From Clostridia bacterium (GTDB lineage Bacteria > Bacillota > Clostridia > JAAYHZ01): 64,000 bases of DNA. The translations under genes were made by a program, and so were the position numbers. Below the pieces are notes generated by a model. It saw only the letters and a list, made by a program, of their open reading frames with translations. It had not been told where the DNA came from and ran no database searches. The stretch lies in NCBI GenBank assembly GCA_050950825.1, contig JBMNIH010000005.1, positions 32,001 through 96,000 on the forward strand, given 5' to 3'. This document shows, piece after piece, positions 43,779-59,136 of the stretch. Positions within the stretch are counted from its first letter, which is position 1, and each line of letters begins with the position of its first letter.

Positions 43779-43938
43779 CCGCCCTACCTCCAAAAGATCG
43801 TGTGCGTTGGTACCTTTATTGTACATTAAAAATTCTCATCTTGCAGTATGGACTTTCTATTCTTTCTATATATAATATTCTTAAATGAGGCAAATCAGGT
43901 TTTTTCAAGAAGAAAAAGTAAAATGCCGAGAGGTTCCT

Positions 43939-45513
43939 ATGCAAAATATTGATCGAATCCAAGAAACCGCTTATCAACTGATTTTAGAATTTTTAACCGG
44001 TGAAGAAAAACCGATTCCCCGTTTCGACCTTAACGACGAAACGGCGCTTTTGAACCTGTTATATAACCGCAAAGTTCTGTTTGCTTTGTCGCCTCTTTTG
44101 GAAAAAAAGCTTTCCGCACCTTCCGTAACCAAAATGAAGGTTCTAACGGCTCATCATAAGAACGTAATTCGGAAAAGGCTTTCCGTTGCAAAAGAGGTGA
44201 TGGATACCGCCATAGAAAACCGTATCCCTTGCGTCTTCATCAAAGGCATGGCTTTATCCCGGCTCATATACGAAGACATATACATAAGACCGGGTAACGA
44301 TTTGGATTTTTGGACGGGCCCCGAATATGCATTGCCCCTTGCAGAAATCTTATTACAAAAAGACTTCTATATCAGCGGCCGCCCGGATCCGAAGACCGGG
44401 AAGGCGGAAAAAATTAAAAAGCCCGTTATGATTCCGGGCTCCTACTATTACGAATACACCGTAGAAAAGGAAGTCGACGGTTTTTCCATAAAAGCGGAGA
44501 TTAAAAAGCTATCCAGCGCCTTGCTATTCTTAAAGAACAGTCCCTATCGGGAAAACATGCTCCAATACACGGAAGAAATCGATTTGGAAGGAAACCGGTT
44601 TGTAACAAGCGATTTGGAATATACCCTTCTTCATTTGTGCGCAAACACATATGTTAATACCGAAAGCGAATTCGGCGTCCTTCATTCTCATCATTGGATC
44701 GATTACATGGATTTGTACCTTTTCTTAAAAAAGTATCAAAATGCTCTGGATTGGAAAAAGGTAAAAGAGCACGGAGAAAACTTGGGCATAACCCATCGAA
44801 TCTACAAAACCTTTAACGACGTCAAAGAATTGTTCGGTTTTCCGATGGACGAATCGATTATCGGACAGTTTACCTTTAACCCCGAAAATGTTACGCATGA
44901 AAGGGTATTCCCGAGCGGTTCCTTAACCGATTGGAAAATGAGCATCAAGGAAAGGTTTTTCTACCCTAAGGAACGGATTATCGAATACTATAAAGGTATA
45001 AGAGCCGAAAAATTCCGACAAGAATACGTAGAAAAAAGCACGTATCGGGTAGAAACAATCGACGACAATCCTCCTTTCTTACGGATGGCGGATGAAGCGG
45101 GGATTGATTACGCCGATTTAAGAATATATAAAGACGATAAAGGACTCTATTTTCATTTGGATCTTGCCGAGGTTGTTAAGAAAAATCCTACGGATTATCA
45201 AGTGCTTTTGTCCTTGTTCAATAACGACATGGAATCCGACGTCTACCAAACCGTCATCCGAACCCATTACGACTCCAACGGCATCTACGCCGATTTGGAG
45301 GATCACAAGCACAAAACGACCGACGCCCTAACGGCGGTGCAAAAGGATGACAGTATTCTTTTACATATCCCCTTCGACAGCATAATCGGGTGGAAAAAAA
45401 GGCTTCTTGCCTTCTCCATCTATTTTTTCAAAAAGATCGAAAACGGTGCCTACGATTACACGGCAGGGGTTATAAAGTCCGATTTGGAAAAAGCAAAGTA
45501 CATCCGGTTCTGA
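43939..45513 (+). CDS. Nucleotidyltransferase family protein (NTP_transf_5-like)
   Basis: IKGMALS..Y....R.GNDLDF motif; LLHLC..; DLY, LDW C-terminal pattern. Confidence 0.75.
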   Translation: MQNIDRIQETAYQLILEFLTGEEKPIPRFDLNDETALLNLLYNRKVLFALSPLLEKKLSAPSVTKMKVLTAHHKNVIRKRLSVAKEVMDTAIENRIPCVFIKGMALSRLIYEDIYIRPGNDLDFWTGPEYALPLAEILLQKDFYISGRPDPKTGKAEKIKKPVMIPGSYYYEYTVEKEVDGFSIKAEIKKLSSALLFLKNSPYRENMLQYTEEIDLEGNRFVTSDLEYTLLHLCANTYVNTESEFGVLHSHHWIDYMDLYLFLKKYQNALDWKKVKEHGENLGITHRIYKTFNDVKELFGFPMDESIIGQFTFNPENVTHERVFPSGSLTDWKMSIKERFFYPKERIIEYYKGIRAEKFRQEYVEKSTYRVETIDDNPPFLRMADEAGIDYADLRIYKDDKGLYFHLDLAEVVKKNPTDYQVLLSLFNNDMESDVYQTVIRTHYDSNGIYADLEDHKHKTTDALTAVQKDDSILLHIPFDSIIGWKKRLLAFSIYFFKKIENGAYDYTAGVIKSDLEKAKYIRF

Positions 45514-50249: not shown

Positions 50250-52307
50250 CTAATAGCTTCTTTTATACCGTGCCACAAATACCGTGGCGGCAACCGGTAA
50301 AAGAACAAGCACACCCGTGAGTATCGGCGAATTGCTTTGATTATCCCGTGATCTCGGTATATTTATATTCGTACGGTTTTGGGTCCGCCCTTCCCGGTTC
50401 TCTTGGCCTCCCGGAAAGAACCCTCCCTGTCCCGGGCCGCCTTGGGCCGGCATTTGTCGGTCGGGAACGGCTCTTTGTTGTCCGTCTTGGAAAAACCATC
50501 CAAACCCGCCTTCTTGTTGGAATCCTCCCGGAAACTCAAAATTTCTACCGTCTCTGCCTCCTAGCATGCTTCCTAATACGGACAGGTTCAAATTTCCCGC
50601 AGGCACCAACTTATTCGGATTTTGGGCCTGTTCCTGCGTTGTAGAAGGAACCGATCCGTCAAGCTGCCCTTGCACGCTTTGGGCGCGGAGATTCCCTAGG
50701 GTTATAAACGCGGAGACGGCCGTTTTGTATTCCTCGTAAGAGCAAAAGGCGGTAGGGTCGTTTTTCACGTATTCGGAAATCAAAGCGTCCAGCTCTTTGA
50801 TTTTCTGCTCGAACTTCCCTTCCGAGAAATAGTTGTCAACCAACCGCTGCAAATAGCCGTGGTAGCGATCCTTGTATTCTTCATCGGACAACAGCTTATC
50901 GATCAAAGGACGGCTTGCCATGCTCACACCGCTTACGGGCGTGTCAACGGGAAAGTTGATCACGGAAGAAGCGCTGCTGTTAAAGAATCCGCCCCAAGCA
51001 AGGTTGTAGTCCCAAGGCAGGACGGTAACTTTTCCGTCTCGCTCGTAAATATAGTAGTTTTGCGCCATTTGGGAGCTGTAGCTGTCCAAGTTCACAACAA
51101 AGGTATGTGCCGCCAAATAGCGTAATATCTTGTCGATGTCAAAGTACTTTTCAAGGTCTTTTCCTTCCGATAAAGCTTTGATCGCTTCGATAACGCGTAA
51201 ATAATCTTTTTCCGTTCCTTTTCCTACCGTGTTGTTAAAAATCGCCGGGTAGCTTTGGGGGTTGTCATCGATGTATTCCAAGCTGCCTCCCGAGCCTCCT
51301 CTCATGCCCATACCCCCGAAGTTCCAATTAAACCCGCCGTTATTATTCCATGCCGGCGGATTGAAATCATCCATTGCCGGCGGATTATTATCACTCGTCC
51401 CCGGAGGATTGTTTTGAGGAGGATTCATAAAAGGCCAAGCGTTTTGCTGCGGAAAACGCGGAGTATTCGAGTCGGAGGGTTCTCTTGTCTCGGGAGGCGA
51501 ATCGGAAGGCGAAAACCCTCTCGGAGGTGTCGACGGCGCCCCTCCTTCATTTCGAGGCCCCTGTTGAAAACCGGGATTCTGCTGAAACGCACCTCCGAAA
51601 GGCATTTGGGGCCATCCTTCTTGCCTGTTCGGCATGTTTTCTTGTTCTCCCCGTCCGAAATCGCCGATGTTTCCTCCGAATCCCGACATTTTTACGTTGT
51701 ACAGCATTCCTTTCGTATCGCCGAAAACCCGCTGTTCATAGCTGTCGTTATACAGTTCCACGGCAAGGTACAGTCCCCAAGGTTCACCGTTTACCTTAAC
51801 CTCCGCATAACCGAAATAGGGAGCGTCTACGCCGGCTTCACGCGTCAAATCGTAGGAGATATACTCCTTCATGTATGTATAATCCCCTAGCATGTTGTTG
51901 ATAACAAAGCTTTCCAGGCCGAAACAGGTCTGTTTTTTGACGTATTCGTTAAATTGAAGGCGAAAGCTGTATCGATCGCTGTTGGAGCTTGCCACTTGGG
52001 TTAAGCTGGAGTTCCCTTTGGGGCGAATGCCGATGTTCATAAATTTCGTGCCGTTTACAATCACATCCGCCATAATAAACTGCTCGTTGATGGCATTGTC
52101 CAGCATTTCCTGCCAGTCGTCTTCATCCGCGAGGATGTCAATGGAAATGATGTCGGTACCGAAAATCTTCCGCGCATACTCCGGTTCCGTTTTCAGATTC
52201 CCCTTTTGGGCTTCCGTATTCGCTACCGCCACAAGGGTAACGCTTACGGCCAAGGCGAAAATTACGGCAATCGCCACGACAATATGTATCTTATTATTCT
52301 TAATCAT
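50250..52307 (-). CDS. CotH kinase family protein, membrane-anchored
   Basis: GIRPKGNSS, GLYLAVE, NLDSY..NYY, LPWDYNLAWG; N- and C-terminal hydrophobic segments; P/G/Q-rich inserts. Confidence 0.88.
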   Translation of the reverse strand: MIKNNKIHIVVAIAVIFALAVSVTLVAVANTEAQKGNLKTEPEYARKIFGTDIISIDILADEDDWQEMLDNAINEQFIMADVIVNGTKFMNIGIRPKGNSSLTQVASSNSDRYSFRLQFNEYVKKQTCFGLESFVINNMLGDYTYMKEYISYDLTREAGVDAPYFGYAEVKVNGEPWGLYLAVELYNDSYEQRVFGDTKGMLYNVKMSGFGGNIGDFGRGEQENMPNRQEGWPQMPFGGAFQQNPGFQQGPRNEGGAPSTPPRGFSPSDSPPETREPSDSNTPRFPQQNAWPFMNPPQNNPPGTSDNNPPAMDDFNPPAWNNNGGFNWNFGGMGMRGGSGGSLEYIDDNPQSYPAIFNNTVGKGTEKDYLRVIEAIKALSEGKDLEKYFDIDKILRYLAAHTFVVNLDSYSSQMAQNYYIYERDGKVTVLPWDYNLAWGGFFNSSASSVINFPVDTPVSGVSMASRPLIDKLLSDEEYKDRYHGYLQRLVDNYFSEGKFEQKIKELDALISEYVKNDPTAFCSYEEYKTAVSAFITLGNLRAQSVQGQLDGSVPSTTQEQAQNPNKLVPAGNLNLSVLGSMLGGRDGRNFEFPGGFQQEGGFGWFFQDGQQRAVPDRQMPAQGGPGQGGFFPGGQENREGRTQNRTNINIPRSRDNQSNSPILTGVLVLLPVAATVFVARYKRSY

Positions 52308-52326
52308 GCTTTCACCCCATTAAACT

Positions 52327-52998
52327 TTAGTCGGCGTATTCGCCGTTGAAGCTTACAAGGCAAGCATTGTTCACTCCGTTTATCTTTAACAATTCATTTA
52401 AAAGCTTTGCCGACATGTCCAAAAGGCGTACTTCGACGGTAAGCTCGATGCCGTTTTTGGAAACGGTCTTCGATTTGATTATATTCTTCTTTGTTTTTTC
52501 CTTGATTAAATTCATGCAATCCTGCTCCGCTTTATCATCCGCAAGGTTCAGCACCACGATGTACGGCGTATCGGTGCTTTTCCTGTTTACGAAAATAAAG
52601 AGCATAAGACCGATGAATAGCGATCCGATGATGGCAAGCGGAATCAACCCCGCACCCAATACGATGCCCGCCGAAATCGCCCAGAACAAAAAGGCAATAT
52701 CCAAGGGCTCCTTAATGGCCGTTCGAAAACGAACAATGGATAACGCGCCTACCATACCGAGGGACAGCACCAAATTCGATGTGACCGCAAGGATGATGAG
52801 GGTAGTGATCATGGTCATCGCCATAATGGAAACACCGAAGGCCGCGGAGTACATGACCCCCGAATAGGTTTTTTTGTAAACGTAAAAGATAAACAGCCCG
52901 ATGGCGAAAGCAAGTAGCATGGCAAGGGCTACATCCAAAACGGAAAATTCAACGGCCTTTTCCAAAAAGCTCGATTTAAAAACATCTCGAAAAGTCAT
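52327..52998 (-). CDS. DUF4956 membrane protein
   Basis: SLGMVGALSIVRFRTAIKEP. Confidence 0.88.
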   Translation of the reverse strand: MTFRDVFKSSFLEKAVEFSVLDVALAMLLAFAIGLFIFYVYKKTYSGVMYSAAFGVSIMAMTMITTLIILAVTSNLVLSLGMVGALSIVRFRTAIKEPLDIAFLFWAISAGIVLGAGLIPLAIIGSLFIGLMLFIFVNRKSTDTPYIVVLNLADDKAEQDCMNLIKEKTKKNIIKSKTVSKNGIELTVEVRLLDMSAKLLNELLKINGVNNACLVSFNGEYAD

Positions 52999-53022
52999 AG
53001 CATTTCCTCCTCACAATCTCTT

Positions 53023-53700
53023 CTAAATATATCTTGCCGCTGCATATTTGGAAAACGACGTACTTTTTCTGCCGGAAAGCGAAACCGCACCTCGGATGAT
53101 TTCAGGCAAGAAGCTGTCGTACTTAACTTCGAGATTATACACGTCTTGAATGGGTATGGGAGCCGGTTCTTTTTTTAAGAAACCATAAACATTGGAGCCT
53201 GTTCGTATGTCGTAATCCAGCGTCACCCTCACGTTCCCCGGAGAGTATACAAACGCTTCGCGCCAATACTCCACAATGTTTTTCGGTCGAAGCTGCAGGT
53301 AAAACATTTTCGCATAAAGCTCCAAGCAGAAAGGATTCTCCTTTTCCTTTAAAACGGCATAATCCCCCGAAAGGAGCCTTTTGCAATCTTCCTCCGATAA
53401 AAGGGCACCTTCTTTATAGCATAAGCCGCCTTGCTTGCTCTTTTTTTCAAGGCGTATAAAAGAGGTATCGTTGTTGTACAACCTTAAGCGAAATTTCTCA
53501 CGCCCGTCTACTCCGTTGATTTTTTCCATTAACACTTTGTCGTTGTAATTATCGAAGTAGAGGCTTTTGACACGATAGCCGTATCCTTCCTTGGAGTTCT
53601 CATCCCGTTTTGCGATTAGGGAAAGCCGGGACCGAAGCTCCAACAAATCGGCGTAATTGATATAGTGCTTCAGCTCACGTCTGCCGCATGGTCGGCTCAT
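53023..53700 (-). CDS. VTC-domain (polyphosphate polymerase-like) protein
   Basis: RELKH, SLYFD, REKFRLRLY, LEKK, Y.REAF, RVTLD, LEVKY, SKY; RBS before ATG 53700. Confidence 0.88.
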   Translation of the reverse strand: MSRPCGRRELKHYINYADLLELRSRLSLIAKRDENSKEGYGYRVKSLYFDNYNDKVLMEKINGVDGREKFRLRLYNNDTSFIRLEKKSKQGGLCYKEGALLSEEDCKRLLSGDYAVLKEKENPFCLELYAKMFYLQLRPKNIVEYWREAFVYSPGNVRVTLDYDIRTGSNVYGFLKKEPAPIPIQDVYNLEVKYDSFLPEIIRGAVSLSGRKSTSFSKYAAARYI

Positions 53701-53731
53701 CCTCTCCTCTCCTTTCCTCTCGGATAAGTCC

Positions 53732-53785
53732 ATTATAGGCGATGAAACTGAAATGCATTTGTCCGTTATCTGAACTTTATCTGAA
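53732..53785 (-). promoter_or_regulatory. -10 box and tandem direct repeats (OmpR-type site) of the VTC operon
   Basis: TTCAGATAA twice with 11-nt period (53785-53777, 53774-53766) upstream of TATAAT (53737-53732). Confidence 0.55.
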
Positions 53786-53834
53786 AATTTTATAAAGAAT
53801 CCATATAAAAAAGTCAAGAAGAAAATATCCGGTA

Positions 53835-55205
53835 TTATCCGTACAAACGCTTGATCAGCTTAAGTCCCTTTTTCCCGGTAGAGTAACGGAAAGGGATGTC
53901 AAAAAGCGTGGTTTGCTTCAAAATAATTTTTTTATGAGAAAAAGCATCGAAGCTTGCTTTCCCGTGGTAATATCCCATCCCGCTTTTCCCTACTCCTCCA
54001 AAGGGCAAATAGGGAGACGTCACGTGAAATATGGTATCGTTGATACAGCCTCCCCCAAAGGAGACGTTACTTAAAACTTCTTTTTCGACGGCGGAGCTTT
54101 CCGTAAACAAGTACAGGGCCAAAGGATCGGGATGCCGAAGAATTCCGTTGAAAACCTCCGTTAAGCTGTCGTACTCCATAACGGGAAGTACGGGTCCGAA
54201 TATTTCCTCCTGCATAACGTGATGCTCCCAAGTGATGCCGGTTAAAACCGTAGGTTCGATTACCAAGCGCTCTTCATCAAAGGAGCCTCCTAAGATAATT
54301 TCTCCTTCGTTCAAATAACCGGTCAGACGTTGAAAATGCTTCCGGTTCACAATCCTTGTATAATGAGGGTTTTTTACGGGAGAAGCACCGTAAAGATCAA
54401 AAACGGCTTTTTTCAGCTCTTCCAAAAAAAGATCACGGACATTTCGGTGTACGTAAACGTAATCCGGAGCTATGCATGTTTGACCTGCATTGATAAACTT
54501 CCCCCAAACGATTCTTTTTGCGGCAAGCCGGATTTTGGCATCCTCATGGACGATGCAAGGCGATTTTCCTCCAAGCTCCAGGGTAACGGGAGTCAAATGC
54601 CTCGCCGCCTTTTCCATCACGATTTTCCCCACTCTTTCGCTGCCGGTGAAAAATATTTTATCAAACGGCTCCTCCAAAAGATCTTGTCCGGTATCGATAT
54701 CGCCCGGCACTACGGCGATATATTCTTCCGGATAGAGTTTTTTGATGATGTCCTCCAAAACCTCGGAGGTTTTCAAGGACATCTCCGACGGCTTGATGAC
54801 GGCACAGTTACCCGCACCGATAGCCCCGATCAAAGGAGCGATGGCAAGCTGAAAAGGATAATTCCAAGGGGATAAAATAAGCGCCGTGCCGTAAGGGTCG
54901 GAGTACACGGTATTTACAGAACCGATCTGAAACCAAGATGACTTTACTCTTTTCGGTTTTGCCCAAGACCGAAGATTTTTTAAGAAAAAGCGAATCTCCT
55001 CCAAGACATAGCCGATTTCGGTGGTATAGGCTTCGAAATCCGATTTATTTAAGTCTTTTTTCAAAGCATCCGTTATTTTGCTTTCGTTTTCCTTGATGGA
55101 TTCTTTTAAGTCTTGTAAGGCTTTTATCCGATACTCTATGTTCTTGGTCTTACCGGTTAAAAAGAAATCTTTTTGCTTTCGGACAAGATCGTGAGCATCC
55201 TTCAT
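53835..55205 (-). CDS. Aldehyde dehydrogenase (ALDH3-like)
   Basis: PWNYP, KPSE, FTGS, LELGGKSP, GQTCIAPD, EEIFGP, PFGGVG.SG. Confidence 0.93.
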   Translation of the reverse strand: MKDAHDLVRKQKDFFLTGKTKNIEYRIKALQDLKESIKENESKITDALKKDLNKSDFEAYTTEIGYVLEEIRFFLKNLRSWAKPKRVKSSWFQIGSVNTVYSDPYGTALILSPWNYPFQLAIAPLIGAIGAGNCAVIKPSEMSLKTSEVLEDIIKKLYPEEYIAVVPGDIDTGQDLLEEPFDKIFFTGSERVGKIVMEKAARHLTPVTLELGGKSPCIVHEDAKIRLAAKRIVWGKFINAGQTCIAPDYVYVHRNVRDLFLEELKKAVFDLYGASPVKNPHYTRIVNRKHFQRLTGYLNEGEIILGGSFDEERLVIEPTVLTGITWEHHVMQEEIFGPVLPVMEYDSLTEVFNGILRHPDPLALYLFTESSAVEKEVLSNVSFGGGCINDTIFHVTSPYLPFGGVGKSGMGYYHGKASFDAFSHKKIILKQTTLFDIPFRYSTGKKGLKLIKRLYG

Positions 55206-55223
55206 CTGCATTCCTCCTGACAT

Positions 55224-55248
55224 AAAAAGGAGTCGCTCGTGACTCCTT
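55224..55248 (-). terminator. Terminator closing the RiPP operon
   Basis: Minus strand AAGGAGTC-acgagc-GACTCCTT-TTT. Confidence 0.65.
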
Positions 55249-55316
55249 GATATTTTCCGTATTTTATCCGCTCCATAGCCGACGTAAAGTTTTTCGGCGG
55301 CAACAAGCTTTCCCCT

Positions 55317-55790
55317 TTATTTTATCCTATGCTTCGAAAGCATGCAAATCCATTTGTAATATCGGCCTTTAAAAACTTGCTCCGTGTTTTTCACAACAAG
55401 AAACCTTTTATGCATCTTTAAAGAAAGAAAGACAATCAAAATGCTTTTTAAGCCGTAGGAGACCTTCTGCTCCGTTCCGTCGTCCCTGATTATTGTAACC
55501 ACCCTTCCGAAGCAATCCTTCGGATCAACGCTTTCGACGGCTACGGCATGGTCGCCTTTTATATACCACATATCCTTTTTCATTCGAACGATTCGGTGGG
55601 TAAGAAGCCTTCCTTTTTGATCAAAGGCGGTCACGATATCCCCTATTCGATAGCTTTCCGCTTTTTCAAGAACCACTTGATCCCCGGAGGATATGATAGG
55701 TTCCATACTGACTCCCTTCACCGTGATGCGATTGTTGTTTTGTCTTAATTGTATTTCGGTCAGAGCTTTATACAGATTGGTTTGATCCAT
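55317..55790 (-). CDS. S24/S26 family peptidase (Ser-His signal-peptidase-like)
   Basis: GVSMEP..SGD, GDIV, THRI, KGD. Confidence 0.85.
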   Translation of the reverse strand: MDQTNLYKALTEIQLRQNNNRITVKGVSMEPIISSGDQVVLEKAESYRIGDIVTAFDQKGRLLTHRIVRMKKDMWYIKGDHAVAVESVDPKDCFGRVVTIIRDDGTEQKVSYGLKSILIVFLSLKMHKRFLVVKNTEQVFKGRYYKWICMLSKHRIK

Positions 55791-56601
55791 GGACGGTTCC
55801 TCTTAAAACCTCTTCTACATAATCCATACGGCTGTAGTTTAATTCATGCGTTCCGGCCTTTGCAAGCTCAATCAACAATTGGACGAAAGAAGGATCCGGT
55901 TTTTGGACGGTATATTGATTCTTCAAAAGCATTAAAAACCCTTCCTGTGACGAGAGCGGGCTTAAAGCTTGGATATCCTTTGTTCTTGCGATCTTGAATA
56001 TTCCTGCCAATGAATACTCCGAGTTTTTATATGACGCGTATACGACCTTTCTCTTGATATCTCCGTACTCGAAAAACTCCCCTTCGACGTCGATTCCGCA
56101 ATTTGTTAAAACCTCCGCTCCGCCTTCTCTTAATTGGATCGGACGAGGAAAAGGAATGATTTTTTTATCTTTTTTACGTATAAGCGCCAAGTCGTCCGAC
56201 AAATAGTCGAATCCCCGCTTGACCAAATAGGCGGTGAGGGTGGATTTTCCGGATCCCGTAGTTCCGGTTAGGATAAAGGCTTTGCCGGATAAACCGACTA
56301 CGGCTCCGTGTATGGCAAGAATCTCCTCGTCTACGGTCGTGGATTCGAACAGAATGTTTTCTATGGCTTGCAAGGCATAGCCACGAGGGATTTTTATCGT
56401 GCTTCCTTGGCAAGTAAAAAGACCGATTTTTGCTTCGTAGGTAATCTCCACGGTCCGGTCTTCGGAGACAGTTTCAAGGCGCATCGGGTTTTGTATAAAG
56501 GGATTGTAGAAAGCATAGAGAATTCGGGTTAACGATTCATCGTCGGTATTCACAACAACAACGGGTTTTTGATAGGGGCGTTTGATTCGTATTTTATGCA
56601 T
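55768..56601 (-). CDS. HPr-kinase-like P-loop kinase (RiPP-associated)
   Basis: IHGAVV..G....GTTGSGKST..LSDD..PFP. Confidence 0.8.
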   Translation of the reverse strand: MHKIRIKRPYQKPVVVVNTDDESLTRILYAFYNPFIQNPMRLETVSEDRTVEITYEAKIGLFTCQGSTIKIPRGYALQAIENILFESTTVDEEILAIHGAVVGLSGKAFILTGTTGSGKSTLTAYLVKRGFDYLSDDLALIRKKDKKIIPFPRPIQLREGGAEVLTNCGIDVEGEFFEYGDIKRKVVYASYKNSEYSLAGIFKIARTKDIQALSPLSSQEGFLMLLKNQYTVQKPDPSFVQLLIELAKAGTHELNYSRMDYVEEVLRGTVHGSNQSV

Positions 56602-57625
56602 GTAGATCTTCCCTGCGCATAGTCAGTACGTTTTTTGCCACTTGTCTGGATATTTGCAGTTTTCGGAAATTGCAGTCCCCGTCATCGGCAAGATAATCCT
56701 TCGTAAGATGATATGCGGATGCGGCGCAGCCTCTTCCGCATAAGTTTTTGCTTATACATTTGTGGCATCCGTAGTCGCACTTTTGTCTTTCCGACAATAG
56801 CGATTGCAGCTCCTTCAGTTTTTCTTCCATGGAGTCGAAATCAAGCCGGTACAAGGAACCGACGGAAAATTCGGGTTCATACAAGTTTTGGCAAGGTTGA
56901 ATGTCTCCGTTGGATTTAACGCAGATACTCAGCCGGTCTAAATTAATTATGGAGCAATTAAAAGTGGCGTAAGGTACGGTAGTCTTAATCCCGTACTTTT
57001 CTTGAAGCTTCTCGATTTTTTCAATGACCTTCAGTTTTTCTTCGGGAGTCAGTTCGATTTCCCTCCAATACCGGTCCGCATGTCCCATTTTCTCCGCAAA
57101 TGCAAAGGAAGGCTTGCAATTGTTTTCAATTGCAAGCACAAAATACTCCTCAACTAAACTGAAATTAAGTCGAGAAACGGTCATTTTGATGATCGGAGAG
57201 ACCTTAGGCTGAAAAGAAGACAAATTTCTCATTGTCTTCATGTAACTGCCTTTTTCCCGAACCCTTGCGTTAGTTTCGTCATCGATACCGTCAATACTGA
57301 ACTGTACGGAGAAACGATCATCCGTTTCCAGTAGACGATAAAAACGGTCGCATCGTACGGTGCCGTTTGTCACCACGAAGAAAGACAATTCTTTGTGCTT
57401 TTCCATCACATCCAGAACCTGTCCCCACTGTCGGTGCAGCAACGGTTCGCCTCCGGAAATGTCAAAGATGGATAATCCGTATCTTTGATGAAAAGCAACA
57501 AGAAACTTTTCAAGCTCATCGGCCGGAATTTCCTGCAGTTCCCTTTTTGAGCCGGATGCGTTGTAGCAATGTCGGCAATTCAGATTGCACCTATTCGTAA
57601 TTTCCACATAGCAAGACCGTATCAT
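56594..57625 (-). CDS. Radical SAM/SPASM peptide maturase
   Basis: CNLNCRHC, SGGEPLL, TNG, SIDG; SPASM C..GDIQPC..CHKC..LCGRGC..C. Confidence 0.92.
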   Translation of the reverse strand: MIRSCYVEITNRCNLNCRHCYNASGSKRELQEIPADELEKFLVAFHQRYGLSIFDISGGEPLLHRQWGQVLDVMEKHKELSFFVVTNGTVRCDRFYRLLETDDRFSVQFSIDGIDDETNARVREKGSYMKTMRNLSSFQPKVSPIIKMTVSRLNFSLVEEYFVLAIENNCKPSFAFAEKMGHADRYWREIELTPEEKLKVIEKIEKLQEKYGIKTTVPYATFNCSIINLDRLSICVKSNGDIQPCQNLYEPEFSVGSLYRLDFDSMEEKLKELQSLLSERQKCDYGCHKCISKNLCGRGCAASAYHLTKDYLADDGDCNFRKLQISRQVAKNVLTMRREDLHA

Positions 57626-57906
57626 CCGACTGTTTCTTTCTCCGCTTTTTTCAGTAAACCGTTCTCTACAAACCGGTTTACCAATTCCTTAATGTCATTT
57701 TGAATAACGCTGCGTTCACCTTCGTACTTTTCAAGCAGCATGTCCGTAGCTTCTTCAAGATCCCTTTCGGTCTCAAAGCAGTTCAAGACATCCAAAGCTA
57801 TACCGTCTAACACCAGGGTATTCCCCGTGCTGCCGTCAAAGTATACACAGCCTTCTCCGTCGTCTAAGGGCATTTCCTCATAGACGATGCTCTTTATGAA
57901 CCTCAT
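57622..57906 (-). CDS. PqqD family RiPP recognition element (RRE)
   Basis: 94 aa; beta strands then L..KYE....IQNDI.E....F.E.GLL helical pattern; between precursor and rSAM. Confidence 0.85.
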   Translation of the reverse strand: MRFIKSIVYEEMPLDDGEGCVYFDGSTGNTLVLDGIALDVLNCFETERDLEEATDMLLEKYEGERSVIQNDIKELVNRFVENGLLKKAEKETVG

Positions 57907-58052
57907 AGAGCCATCCTACCTATGCGTATGAGATCACAAGCAACTCCATAGGTTGAGCATGCTCCGGAAACCACAACCTTATTGAGCTCATCCAACGTGA
58001 TGACCTCCATTGTCGGTTTCTGCCACTGCTTCTTGATCGTTTCTTGTTTCAT
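57903..58052 (-). CDS. 49-aa RiPP precursor peptide (unannotated)
   Basis: RBS AGGAGG (58066-58061); MKQETIKKQWQKPTMEVITLDELNKVVVSGACSTYGVACDLIRIGRMAL*; stop overlaps the PqqD start (ATGA). Confidence 0.82.
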   Translation of the reverse strand: MKQETIKKQWQKPTMEVITLDELNKVVVSGACSTYGVACDLIRIGRMAL

Positions 58053-58074
58053 TGTTCAATCCTCCTATCGATTA

Positions 58075-59136
58075 TTAGTGTATAATCTTTTTCAGTTGTC
58101 TTAAGGCAATATTGATTGAATCCGGTCGGATCTTGTAATAGGAGCGCTTGCCTTCGTTTCTTCTTTCCACCAATCCCGATTGGTACAAAATATCCAAATG
58201 GTGGGACAGGGAGGATAAGGGTAATCCCAATCGCTCCGCGATTTCACTGGCAAACAATTCCCCGTCTTTAATGGTTTTGATGATGCTTATTCGTGTTTCA
58301 TCGGTAAAGGCTTTGAAGAACGTAATTTCATCCTCGTGAATATCCTGTACGACCTGCAAGCCTCTATCGTAATCAAATCCTAAATATACATTCAAAGTCC
58401 GTCTATACATTCGATATTGTATGGTATAGGGTATGAAAAATCCTACGGCAAGTCGAACCGTTGTAAATCGGCCTGATTTTACAAGGCTTGCATAGTTATC
58501 GGACATCTTCATAAGCCGGCTGTCGCCGTAGGCTTCAAATCTTTTTCCGACGGTTTCATAATATTCATCGATCAATTTTCGGTGGTTATCGTACTCGATT
58601 TCCAACTCTCTTGCAAAGTCCGTCAATGATTTGACTATTTTTCGCTTCGTTCCTTCAGGGGATTCGATCAACGATAGCATGTTCCATTTCAGGTCCGCAT
58701 CCAAATTGATGCCGTCCAAAAACACCATTAACAGTTTCTTGTTTTCTAATAGGAATTGATAAAAGGAGTCGGGAAAATGATTCTTCGAATCATAAAAATC
58801 CAATAATTTTATTTGCAATTCATCGGTGTCGATATCGTTAAAAGCATTGATTAACTCCTCAATGGATTCACCGTTCACCAACGATTCCGCCATTAAATTA
58901 GGAAAAAAGGTCATTCCGTTATCACATGTGTGAAAAAAAAGGCGAATCAAAGGAAGGTCATTTTTTATGTATTCTCGTAAACGAGAATACGCGGTTTTAA
59001 CATTTCGCGGCACAGAGAGGTCATAATCGGTATAGATTTCATCAAGATTTTTGCACCGCGTTAACAGATTAAGAAGAGCAGTAAAATCATAAATTTTACC
59101 CTTCTCCGGCTCGTACAAGTATGTTATGTCATTCAT
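58075..59136 (-). CDS. ArsR/SmtB-family regulator with large N-terminal domain
   Basis: C-terminal FKAFTDETRISI..EIAERLGL..SSLSHHL..L..SGLV..EG...YY. Confidence 0.85.
   Translation of the reverse strand: MNDITYLYEPEKGKIYDFTALLNLLTRCKNLDEIYTDYDLSVPRNVKTAYSRLREYIKNDLPLIRLFFHTCDNGMTFFPNLMAESLVNGESIEELINAFNDIDTDELQIKLLDFYDSKNHFPDSFYQFLLENKKLLMVFLDGINLDADLKWNMLSLIESPEGTKRKIVKSLTDFARELEIEYDNHRKLIDEYYETVGKRFEAYGDSRLMKMSDNYASLVKSGRFTTVRLAVGFFIPYTIQYRMYRRTLNVYLGFDYDRGLQVVQDIHEDEITFFKAFTDETRISIIKTIKDGELFASEIAERLGLPLSSLSHHLDILYQSGLVERRNEGKRSYYKIRPDSINIALRQLKKIIH

Follow-up and report, generated by a model that had tools for sequence, protein, structure and literature searches.

We analysed a 64,000-nucleotide stretch of the genome of a Clostridia bacterium (NCBI GenBank assembly GCA_050950825.1, contig JBMNIH010000005.1, positions 32,001 to 96,000 of the forward strand; hereafter the window, in whose numbering coordinates are given), and within it a 49-codon open reading frame (ORF) on the minus strand, at 57903-58052, that a first-pass annotation had put forward as a hidden precursor of a peptide made on ribosomes and modified after translation (RiPP). 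This claim is borne out by a conserved peptide family and by an operon that encodes a RiPP recognition element (RRE) and modification enzymes. On sequence evidence, we take the ORF to be a genuine RiPP precursor of a large uncharacterised family of anaerobic Clostridia. Its operon is probably a hybrid, in which a leader/RRE/kinase/SipW-peptidase module of the LPP (linear polyphosphorylated peptide) and paeninodin type is combined with a radical S-adenosylmethionine (rSAM)/SPASM enzyme.

The precursor gene and its operon

The order on the minus strand is a regulator gene, the precursor gene, and genes for a PqqD-family protein, an rSAM/SPASM enzyme, an HprK-like kinase and a SipW-type S24/S26 peptidase; a terminator-like hairpin comes after the last gene. 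From precursor through peptidase, the genes overlap by 4, 4, 8 and 23 nt. The precursor ORF, which translates as MKQETIKKQWQKPTMEVITLDELNKVVVSGACSTYGVACDLIRIGRMAL, has an AGGAGG ribosome-binding site (58061-58066, minus strand, read from the sequence) 8 nt before its ATG, and its stop codon TGA (57903-57905) overlaps the pqqD ATG (57904-57906) as an ATGA on the minus strand; these features had been pointed out beforehand together with the peptide sequence, and all of them hold on translation and on the match of the next gene to PF05402. The leader comprises residues 1-31 (MKQETIKKQWQKPTMEVITLDELNKVVVSGA; 57960..58052, minus strand), as delimited by alignments and family statistics, and contains the motif W10-x-K12-P13, T17, E22-L23, I/V at position -5 and an S-G-A end. 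The putative core, residues 32-49 (CSTYGVACDLIRIGRMAL; 57906..57959, minus strand), was delimited by a fixed spacing and an A-x-A-like motif, and the boundary so predicted from sequence could be off by one residue. C32 and C39 form a CX6C pattern, and the conserved residues of the core are Ser33 and Cys39.

The protein encoded next to the precursor is a discrete RRE of the PqqD family (94 aa; 57622..57906, minus strand; PF05402, E=4.6e-10; 40.1 bits, cut-off 23.4). A comparison of the PqqD family profile with the PDB returned the lasso RREs TbiB1 (5v1u, 1.4e-8) and 9x90_B (6.3e-6), and the PqqD-family chain 9x8z_B (7.5e-4). It is followed by the rSAM/SPASM enzyme (343 aa, without an N-terminal RRE; 56594..57625, minus strand; PF04055), which belongs to a subfamily of about 58 clusters found at E<1e-50 and sharing 34-60% identity, beyond which there is a gap down to about 30% identity. 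Conservation was assessed on an alignment of 30 of these clusters (A1), which were hand-picked, the loci having been fetched with the rSAM enzyme. The cluster motif CX3CX2C (C13/C17/C20) and the seven SPASM cysteines (C224, C245, C287, C290, C296, C300 and C318) are present in 30/30 sequences. Possible eighth SPASM ligands are unconserved, with Cys at C235 in 23/30 sequences and at C220 in 16/30; this would fit an open site on auxiliary cluster I such as CteB reportedly has, a point that is not stated in the review we checked and to which we give little weight. The only sequence matches of the enzyme in the PDB are SkfB 6efn (8.9e-13) and CteB 5wgg (2e-6).

The HprK-like kinase (277 aa; 55768..56601, minus strand) matches PF07475 and TIGR04352 (E=1.9e-20; 73 bits, cut-off 200). 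H98, K119 and D137 are found in 18/18 sequences and D136 in 16/18, the other 2 having Glu; the P-loop includes G118-K119. These conserved residues correspond to the His-Lys-Asp-Asp motif that is essential in lasso-peptide kinases (PMC9266682). The last gene encodes a serine peptidase of the SipW/archaeal S24/S26 type (157 aa; 55317..55790, minus strand), a candidate leader peptidase, with PF00717 above the cut-off (E=8.9e-8) and TIGR02228 (E=6.1e-11) at 42.4 bits against 51.85. Its motifs are GVS28MEP, H65-R66 and K78-G79-D80; H65 and D80 occur in 18/18 sequences, S28 in 17/18, and the full H65-R66 and K78-G79-D80 motifs in 17 or 18 of 18. It has His where LexA-type and bacterial-type enzymes have Lys, which we take to be the mark of the SipW/Sec11 type. 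No N-terminal hydrophobic anchor was seen in the peptidase sequence, and a PDB sequence search with it gave no meaningful match. The sequence without the catalytic Ser, which has Cys instead (GQCMHP), comes from a distant relative with two rSAM genes and Cys-rich cores (L095:8097-8441).

The precursor family and its loci

A profile made from 21 precursors (A2) was searched against 1.84 billion protein representatives at E<=0.001, and it retrieved 271 cluster representatives (clusters at 50% identity). Among the 150 matches listed, 147 are peptides of 34-78 residues, and these were counted together with the window peptide, 148 in all. The motif [W/Y]xxP is present in 146/148, and a Ser or Thr lies exactly 20 residues after its Pro in 142/148 (Ser 140, Thr 2); the following counts by position refer to these 142 in-register peptides, the other six being outside the register. 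The aromatic residue of the motif is W in 135 and Y in 7, and the residue before the Pro is K in 115/142, so the reading of W-x-K-P as a conserved leader motif stands. The form [Y/W]xxPx[L/V/I/F/A] is the motif recognised by discrete lasso RREs (PMC13381572). Towards the boundary, position -5 is I/V and position -3 is A/V/S/L/I in 138/142 each, position -2 is A/S/G in 130/142, and position -1 is Ala in 137 and Gly in 3. This pattern, the fixed distance from the Pro and the SipW-type peptidase fit the cut after S-G-A that had been suggested for the window peptide, where the site is a predicted one. The family consensus reads K-W-x-K-P-x-h-x-T-h-x3-E-L-x3-I-x-[A/V]-[A/S]-A / x-S, with the slash at the boundary. 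W10, P13, S33 and C39 are invariant in a further alignment (A4, 89 members), whose members were chosen by eye for compact length; the counts over 148 and 142 peptides are the unbiased figures.

The cores are 10-36 residues long (median 13) and vary widely in sequence, most of them having one or two Cys only. Core position +1 is Cys in 74, Arg in 47 and Trp in 11 peptides (132/142 together), and position +4 is aromatic in 61 of the 74 with Cys at +1. A Cys is found downstream of the Ser in 141/142, and the C-terminal residue is Arg in 96 and Lys in 12 (R/K in 108). Among the R/K-ending cores with a Cys after the Ser, the first such Cys precedes the C-terminus by 5 or 6 residues in 90/107, while the Ser-to-Cys distance is loose (2-8 residues). 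Two proposals of the first-pass annotation have to be narrowed in this light. It had taken both cysteines of the window peptide as thioether donors, which agrees with the invariance of C39 but not with the Arg or Trp that so often replaces C32; and it had named Ser-Thr-Tyr as kinase acceptors, of which Ser33 is conserved and Thr34 and Tyr35 are not. Its reading thus appears largely right in outline, and the residues that matter, judging from the alignments, would be Ser33 and Cys39.

Three observations on single positions and loci may be added. The Cys, Arg and Trp codons at core +1 are single-base neighbours of one another and of UGA. A selenocysteine at core +1 was considered and rejected, as TGA read-through of 26 loci only extended known precursors through flanking TGA codons and gave no leader ending in TGA. 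At L007:860-1100 (minus strand), in Fumia xinanensis NSJ-33, a precursor homologue is split by a one-base frameshift, so that its start (MKLWHKP...) and its remainder (...LTLTAKELKVQIKAAARSWGCTTAQSR) are read in different frames; in this cultured strain, the frameshift is either a sequencing error or the sign of a pseudogene.

The 22 orthologous loci comprise 9 from species genomes (L004-L012), 11 from metagenomes (L084-L094) and 2 from relatives (L167, L168); L092 and L093 repeat L090 and L012, and the number of independent loci is thus below 22. The gene set of the operon recurs in 18/22 loci. The kinase is complete in 18/22 and partial in one more (L004, whose contig ends there, leaving a kinase fragment and no peptidase), and the peptidase is present in 18/22. 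Both are missing in three loci, two of which are 1.7-kb contigs (L087 and L091) and the third L010. Homologous loci also served to build the precursor alignment that had been suggested as a check, and the ORF is conserved: a hidden Markov model (HMM) found a precursor homologue, adjoining the same gene set, in 14/22 loci. It found none in L010, L085-L089 and L091 and only a degenerate match (E=0.06) in L094; in most of these loci, the sequence available upstream of the kinase gene is shorter than 2.5 kb. Two different precursors occur at L006, at L168 and at the more distant L095. Nearly all precursor homologue ORFs have a GGAGG-like site 6-10 nt 5' of the start. Close homologues of the window precursor are six called proteins in public data, 71-96% identical to it. 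Strain variants in its ORF also number six, three synonymous and three changing the leader (T5A, I6N, T14K), with zero variants in residues 15-49.

In 11 of the 18 loci that have the peptidase, it forms the N-terminal part of a fusion protein with PqqD (239-246 aa; L005, L008, L009, L084-L086, L088-L090, L092 and L094), and this peptidase-RRE fusion is the serine-protease counterpart of the fused lasso B protein. At L006:2673-4808 and L168:8381-10510, the peptidase is instead fused to an NTP_transf_5 domain (about 710 aa). Related loci also add fusions of an acyl carrier protein (ACP) with FkbH (TIGR01686 above the cut-off), NTP_transf_5 genes and pairs of ATP-binding cassette (ABC) exporter genes, the exporters being found for instance at L008 and L013. 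At L005, L008 and L012, ACP-FkbH or FkbH genes adjoin NTP_transf_5. The combination of FkbH and NTP_transf_5 hints at a glycerate-derived or nucleotide-linked decoration of phosphoserine in relatives of this kind. Domain scans found no exporter, NTP transferase or ACP-FkbH gene in the window operon, and since related loci carry such genes, the window operon is a minimal version. The L005 PqqD domain passes TIGR04353 (37.2 against 35), and at that locus the MftC score is 108 and the PqqE score 75.5 against 381. The distribution of the system is patchy, as reported for LPP and paeninodins: an rSAM orthologue (E<=1e-50) is present in 8 of 399 sampled genomes of the class, in 5 of 217 genera; it occurs twice in one genome of the same family, and a search of a single genome from the same genus did not find it.

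The regulator gene (58075..59136, minus strand) ends 22 nt before the precursor start and encodes 353 aa with a C-terminal winged helix of the ArsR/SmtB type (about residues 260-353; NF033788 E=4e-21; PF01022/PF12840). Regulator homologues adjoin the precursor in related loci, and the ArsR-type regulator probably controls the operon. Its AlphaFold2 model has a pLDDT of 87.5, and only residues from about 250 to 353 match ArsR-family chains in the PDB. Residues 1-255 form an all-helical domain (pLDDT about 90) that is conserved beside precursors; it has no match in Pfam or NCBIfam, and the fold lists of the whole-model PDB search, in which the domain was not searched alone, were filled by ArsR. 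This N-terminal domain might act as the system's sensor. Upstream of the regulator, at 59355-59328 (minus strand), is the best promoter-like site, as a pattern match only. The hairpin with its T-run (55227..55248, minus strand), 69 nt past the peptidase stop, is likewise a pattern match only, from a consensus scan, and likely marks the operon end.

The surroundings of the operon look unrelated to it: an aldehyde dehydrogenase gene, VTC/DUF4956/CotH genes and a two-component system. The genes at 50250-53817 (minus strand), downstream of the aldehyde dehydrogenase, encode a CotH kinase-like protein of 685 aa that carries a long insert of low complexity rich in Pro, Gly and Asn, a DUF4956 protein and a VTC-domain protein, and this set appears to have no relation to the peptide operon. 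An NTP_transf_5 (PF14907) protein of 542 aa, the sole one in the genome, is encoded 10 kb from the operon at 43885-45513 (plus strand). As an operon partner it was rejected, being on the other strand, 10 kb off and only 22% identical to the cluster-linked type.

The stretch occurs in 22 metatranscriptome runs from 19 studies (biogas, anaerobic digesters, sludge reactors). Contigs from four runs, of four studies, cover the precursor ORF, among them one 934-nt contig that corresponds to 57155-58088. In these four runs, the contig depth is mostly 12.7-169 at 56121-58339 (the 5' part of the rSAM gene, pqqD and the precursor; lowest bins 2-7) and at most 7.2 at 52000-56120; these figures deserve little weight, as contig depth is no basis for ranking genes, the stretch itself was used in choosing the runs and RNA libraries may contain DNA. 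The contigs show that the precursor region is present in RNA libraries, which hints at its transcription and proves neither transcription nor translation. In one run, the depth is 38.8 at 57155-58088 and 4.1 at 58079-58939, a fall that comes just upstream of the precursor ribosome-binding site. This step at 58080-58090 is compatible with an extra promoter in the 3' end of the regulator gene, contigs being unable to show transcript starts.

A proposed pathway and its alternatives

The parallels on which a pathway can be modelled come largely from the LPP pathway that has been described in Bacillota and consists of LppA/B/K/S/N/D (Popov et al., Nat Commun 2026, PMC13381572). There, the precursor LppA has the leader motif YxxPxVLxHQxIxFETxxS and LppB is its discrete RRE; the HprK-like LppK puts up to four phosphates on Ser3 of the core and leaves S3A, S3T and S3Y unmodified; the SipW-like LppS (S29/H68/D93) cuts after T-1 only with LppB and handles unphosphorylated precursor poorly; LppN is an NTP transferase and LppD an MsbA-like exporter. 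Whether Y or W stands in the motif decides which RRE binds, W being typical of leaders of the paeninodin-type lasso peptides (PMC13381572).

For the window operon, we infer each chemical step, and the order of the steps, from the observed gene content, motifs, conservation and spacing. The discrete PqqD would very probably bind the leader via W10-x-K12-P13 and the beta-strand residues that follow. The HprK-like kinase would then phosphorylate Ser33, two residues behind the predicted cut and possibly more than once, which we consider a reasonable expectation; Ser33 is the best candidate because it is the only conserved hydroxyl near the cut site and by analogy with Ser3 of LppA. It is quite likely that the rSAM/SPASM enzyme modifies the core in some way at or through Cys39. 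With an invariant Cys and a full SPASM domain, a crosslink via Cys39 seems the most likely third modification, and the tight spacing of this Cys from the C-terminus suggests a partner in the C-terminal segment; that the product is a thioether between Cys39 and a residue of this segment is a more tentative proposal, on which we stop just short of an even bet. The SipW-type Ser/His/Asp peptidase, guided by PqqD, would with fair probability release the 18-residue core by cutting after Ala31 or within one residue of that point. That PqqD presents a defined bond to the peptidase is indicated by the fixed 19-residue distance from the Pro to position +1, by the A/V-x-A pattern and by the peptidase-RRE fusions, taken together; such presentation has been demonstrated for LppB and LppS.

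Leader recognition was also addressed by predicting the complex of PqqD with leader residues 1-34, a modelling that the first-pass annotation had recommended. The ipSAE was 0.44, against 0.02 for the best control, and the result was rated as weak support. In the benchmark, 58 of 80 solved complexes and 2 of 110 mismatches passed; the passes at an ipSAE of 0.60 or under came from only 7 of the 80 solved complexes and from both mismatches. The prediction runs agree in at least 92% of contacts, with a partner pLDDT of at least 62; they used alignments of our own, and as similar RRE-leader complexes have been solved, a pass may reflect memory or likeness only.

Several facts speak against the proposed pathway, the modest result of the complex prediction among them. 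Phosphorylation, crosslinking and cleavage are all deduced from sequence. The rSAM enzyme lies below every NCBIfam cut-off, its top scores being MftC 96.1 (cut-off 265), ScmE 91, NirJ2 85 and PapB 83, and these best-scoring families differ in chemistry, so that they do not point to one reaction type. The window peptide is atypical of its family in lacking an R/K C-terminus (as do 34/142): it ends in Leu, with R46 placed 7 residues beyond Cys39. The locus L010 has PqqD and the rSAM enzyme without kinase, peptidase or precursor within 6 kb, and no exporter is found near the window operon.

The alternatives have to be weighed against the same data. A chance ORF without product might be thought of, as the ORF is short and the ORF listing purely mechanical, but this is hardly credible: the ORF must be counted a real gene because homologues, shared gene context, ribosome-binding site and profile matches exceed chance, and conservation in 271 cluster representatives, the ribosome-binding sites of the homologues, translational coupling and a strain variation that leaves the core untouched all argue the same way. 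If the product were instead a linear phosphopeptide of the LPP kind, the rSAM enzyme would act on another substrate or be a relic. The kinase, RRE and SipW-type peptidase do match the LPP core set, and there is, as in LppA, a Ser near the cut site (PMC13381572). Yet we find this reading unlikely: the rSAM gene shares 4 nt with pqqD and 8 nt with the kinase gene, a family precursor is present in 14 of the 22 loci that were found via the rSAM enzyme, the rSAM/SPASM cysteines are invariant in 30/30, and the core Cys of 141/142 peptides would be needless in a purely phosphorylated linear peptide. Nor does the main text of PMC13381572 contain the terms 'radical', 'rSAM' or 'SPASM' (or 'Clostridi'). 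Elimination from phosphoSer33 to dehydroalanine, followed by addition of Cys39, would give a lanthionine-like ring and leave the rSAM enzyme some other task. Ser33 and one downstream Cys are indeed the only universal core residues, and kinase-then-elimination is the logic of class III/IV lanthipeptides (PMC4289311), but domain scans of the operon found no lyase or cyclase domain, the homologous LPP kinase leaves a stable (poly)phosphate on Ser (PMC13381572), and it is the Cys-to-C-terminus spacing that is tight and the Ser-Cys spacing that is loose, all of which makes this route highly improbable.

Two further readings would place the precursor in known classes. That it is a paeninodin-type lasso precursor, cyclised by enzymes encoded elsewhere, has in its favour a match of leader residues 7-19 to the paeninodin model NF033524 (E=0.0016), the W-type motif typical of paeninodin leaders (PMC13381572), a PqqD profile nearest to lasso RREs and an Asp at core position 9. 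The match is sub-threshold, however (18.1 bits against a cut-off of 27), and confined to the leader, and acidic residues at core 7-9 do not characterise the family. The C-terminal Ser that is the kinase site of paeninodins (PMC9266682) is missing, domain scans of the operon found neither a lasso cyclase nor a B2 protease, and PF13471 (B2 protease) has 0 matches in the 97.1%-complete genome, in which the cyclase family was not searched; only the barest probability can be given to a lasso product. A precursor of a peptide-derived cofactor, as for pyrroloquinoline quinone (PQQ) or mycofactocin, would account for the discrete PqqD, RRE-less rSAM/SPASM enzyme and peptidase, for the mycofactocin maturase MftC as top NCBIfam score (96.1 bits; 108 in L005), and for the lack of an exporter in the window operon. 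Cofactor precursors are as a rule nearly invariant, whereas the cores here vary in length and sequence and some loci have two different precursors (L006, L168, L095). The MftC score is far below the cut-off of 265 and PqqE is not among the 25 best matches listed for the window rSAM enzyme, and both the exporters of several related loci (L008, L013) and the patchy distribution (8 of 399 class genomes) fit a cofactor poorly, which leaves it improbable.

We therefore return to the hybrid operon and its modified core. These genes may, on a cautious estimate that falls somewhat below even, define an undescribed RiPP class of at least 271 precursor clusters, whose products would be phosphoserine peptides of 10-18 residues with an rSAM-made crosslink on an invariant Cys, 5-6 residues from a C-terminal Arg. 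In the literature searched, we found no RiPP cluster that couples an rSAM enzyme with a kinase and an S24 peptidase, nor a peptidase-RRE fusion with it; the RRE-Finder paper has no mention of kinase, HPr, nucleotidyltransferase or S24, a 2025 RRE paper none of these or of signal peptidase, and a 2023 review of leader proteases none of S24, S26, signal peptidase or LexA. If the proposal is right, LPP chemistry would reach beyond the linear phosphopeptides of Bacilli and take in crosslinked ones made by strict anaerobes in digesters and guts. The operon would then be a second independent setting for a SipW-type leader peptidase, with fusions arguing directly that the RRE presents the cut site, and its rSAM/SPASM enzymes a defined subfamily with hundreds of natural substrates, anchored by Ser +2, one Cys and a C-terminal Arg. 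The minimal six-gene operon suits heterologous reconstitution, and as it is compact and occurs in RNA libraries from well-studied bioreactors, it offers a practical entry point. The function of the LPP and paeninodin families themselves is still unknown (PMC13381572, Discussion).

Comparison with known systems

Pairs of an HprK-related protein and a PqqD-family protein, as in the window, are known from two families defined bioinformatically: the HPr-rel-A system (TIGR04352 kinase, TIGR04353 PqqD) and the SynChlorMet cassette (ScmC/ScmE/ScmF), which has two rSAM/SPASM enzymes in addition. The window proteins match TIGR04352, ScmE, ScmF and ScmC, all below the cut-offs. With the maturases of sactipeptides and ranthipeptides (SkfB, CteB, PapB, StsB), the operon shares the full seven-Cys SPASM domain and a short Cys-bearing core (141/142), but the window rSAM enzyme scores far below these families (PapB 82.7 against 340, StsB 76.3 against 625, SkfB 57.9 against 300, AlbA 52.4 against 850). 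The RRE is fused to the enzyme in most sactisynthases, whereas it is a separate protein in the window, where a kinase and a SipW-type peptidase also belong to the set.

The phosphorylated lasso peptides of the paeninodin type (PadeK/ThcoK, PsmK/PsmN; PMC9266682) resemble the window system in the W-type leader, the lasso-like discrete RRE and the motif of the HprK-like kinase and, as far as related loci are concerned, in the NTP transferase. They differ in the kinase site, a C-terminal Ser that the window peptide does not have (PMC9266682), and in the leader peptidase, which is a transglutaminase-like cysteine enzyme there and a serine peptidase in the window.

The closest published system is the LPP pathway. 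Both have a discrete PqqD-type RRE adjoining the precursor, an HprK-like kinase, and a SipW/archaeal-type peptidase with Ser/His/Asp, the window enzyme being assigned to this type by family models. Both have a [Y/W]xxP leader and, as second or third residue past the cut, a Ser (Ser +2 in 140/142 of the window family). Equivalents of two other LPP components, an NTP_transf_5 transferase and ABC exporters, are found in related loci only, the window operon being without counterparts of LppN and LppD. Two differences tell against pressing the parallel: the LPP leader is of the Y type, with another downstream motif and a Pro-to-Ser distance of 15 against 20 in the window family, so that the cut and phosphorylation sites are analogous by position and not by alignment; and LppS cuts after Thr with Phe at -3 (F-E-T), in contrast to the A-x-A-like site of the window. 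The LppA core has 45 residues, and the window family cores a median of 13, an invariant Cys and mostly a C-terminal Arg. The LPP hosts are Bacilli and the window hosts anaerobic Clostridia, and whereas the LPP product stays linear, the window operon has a translationally coupled rSAM/SPASM gene.

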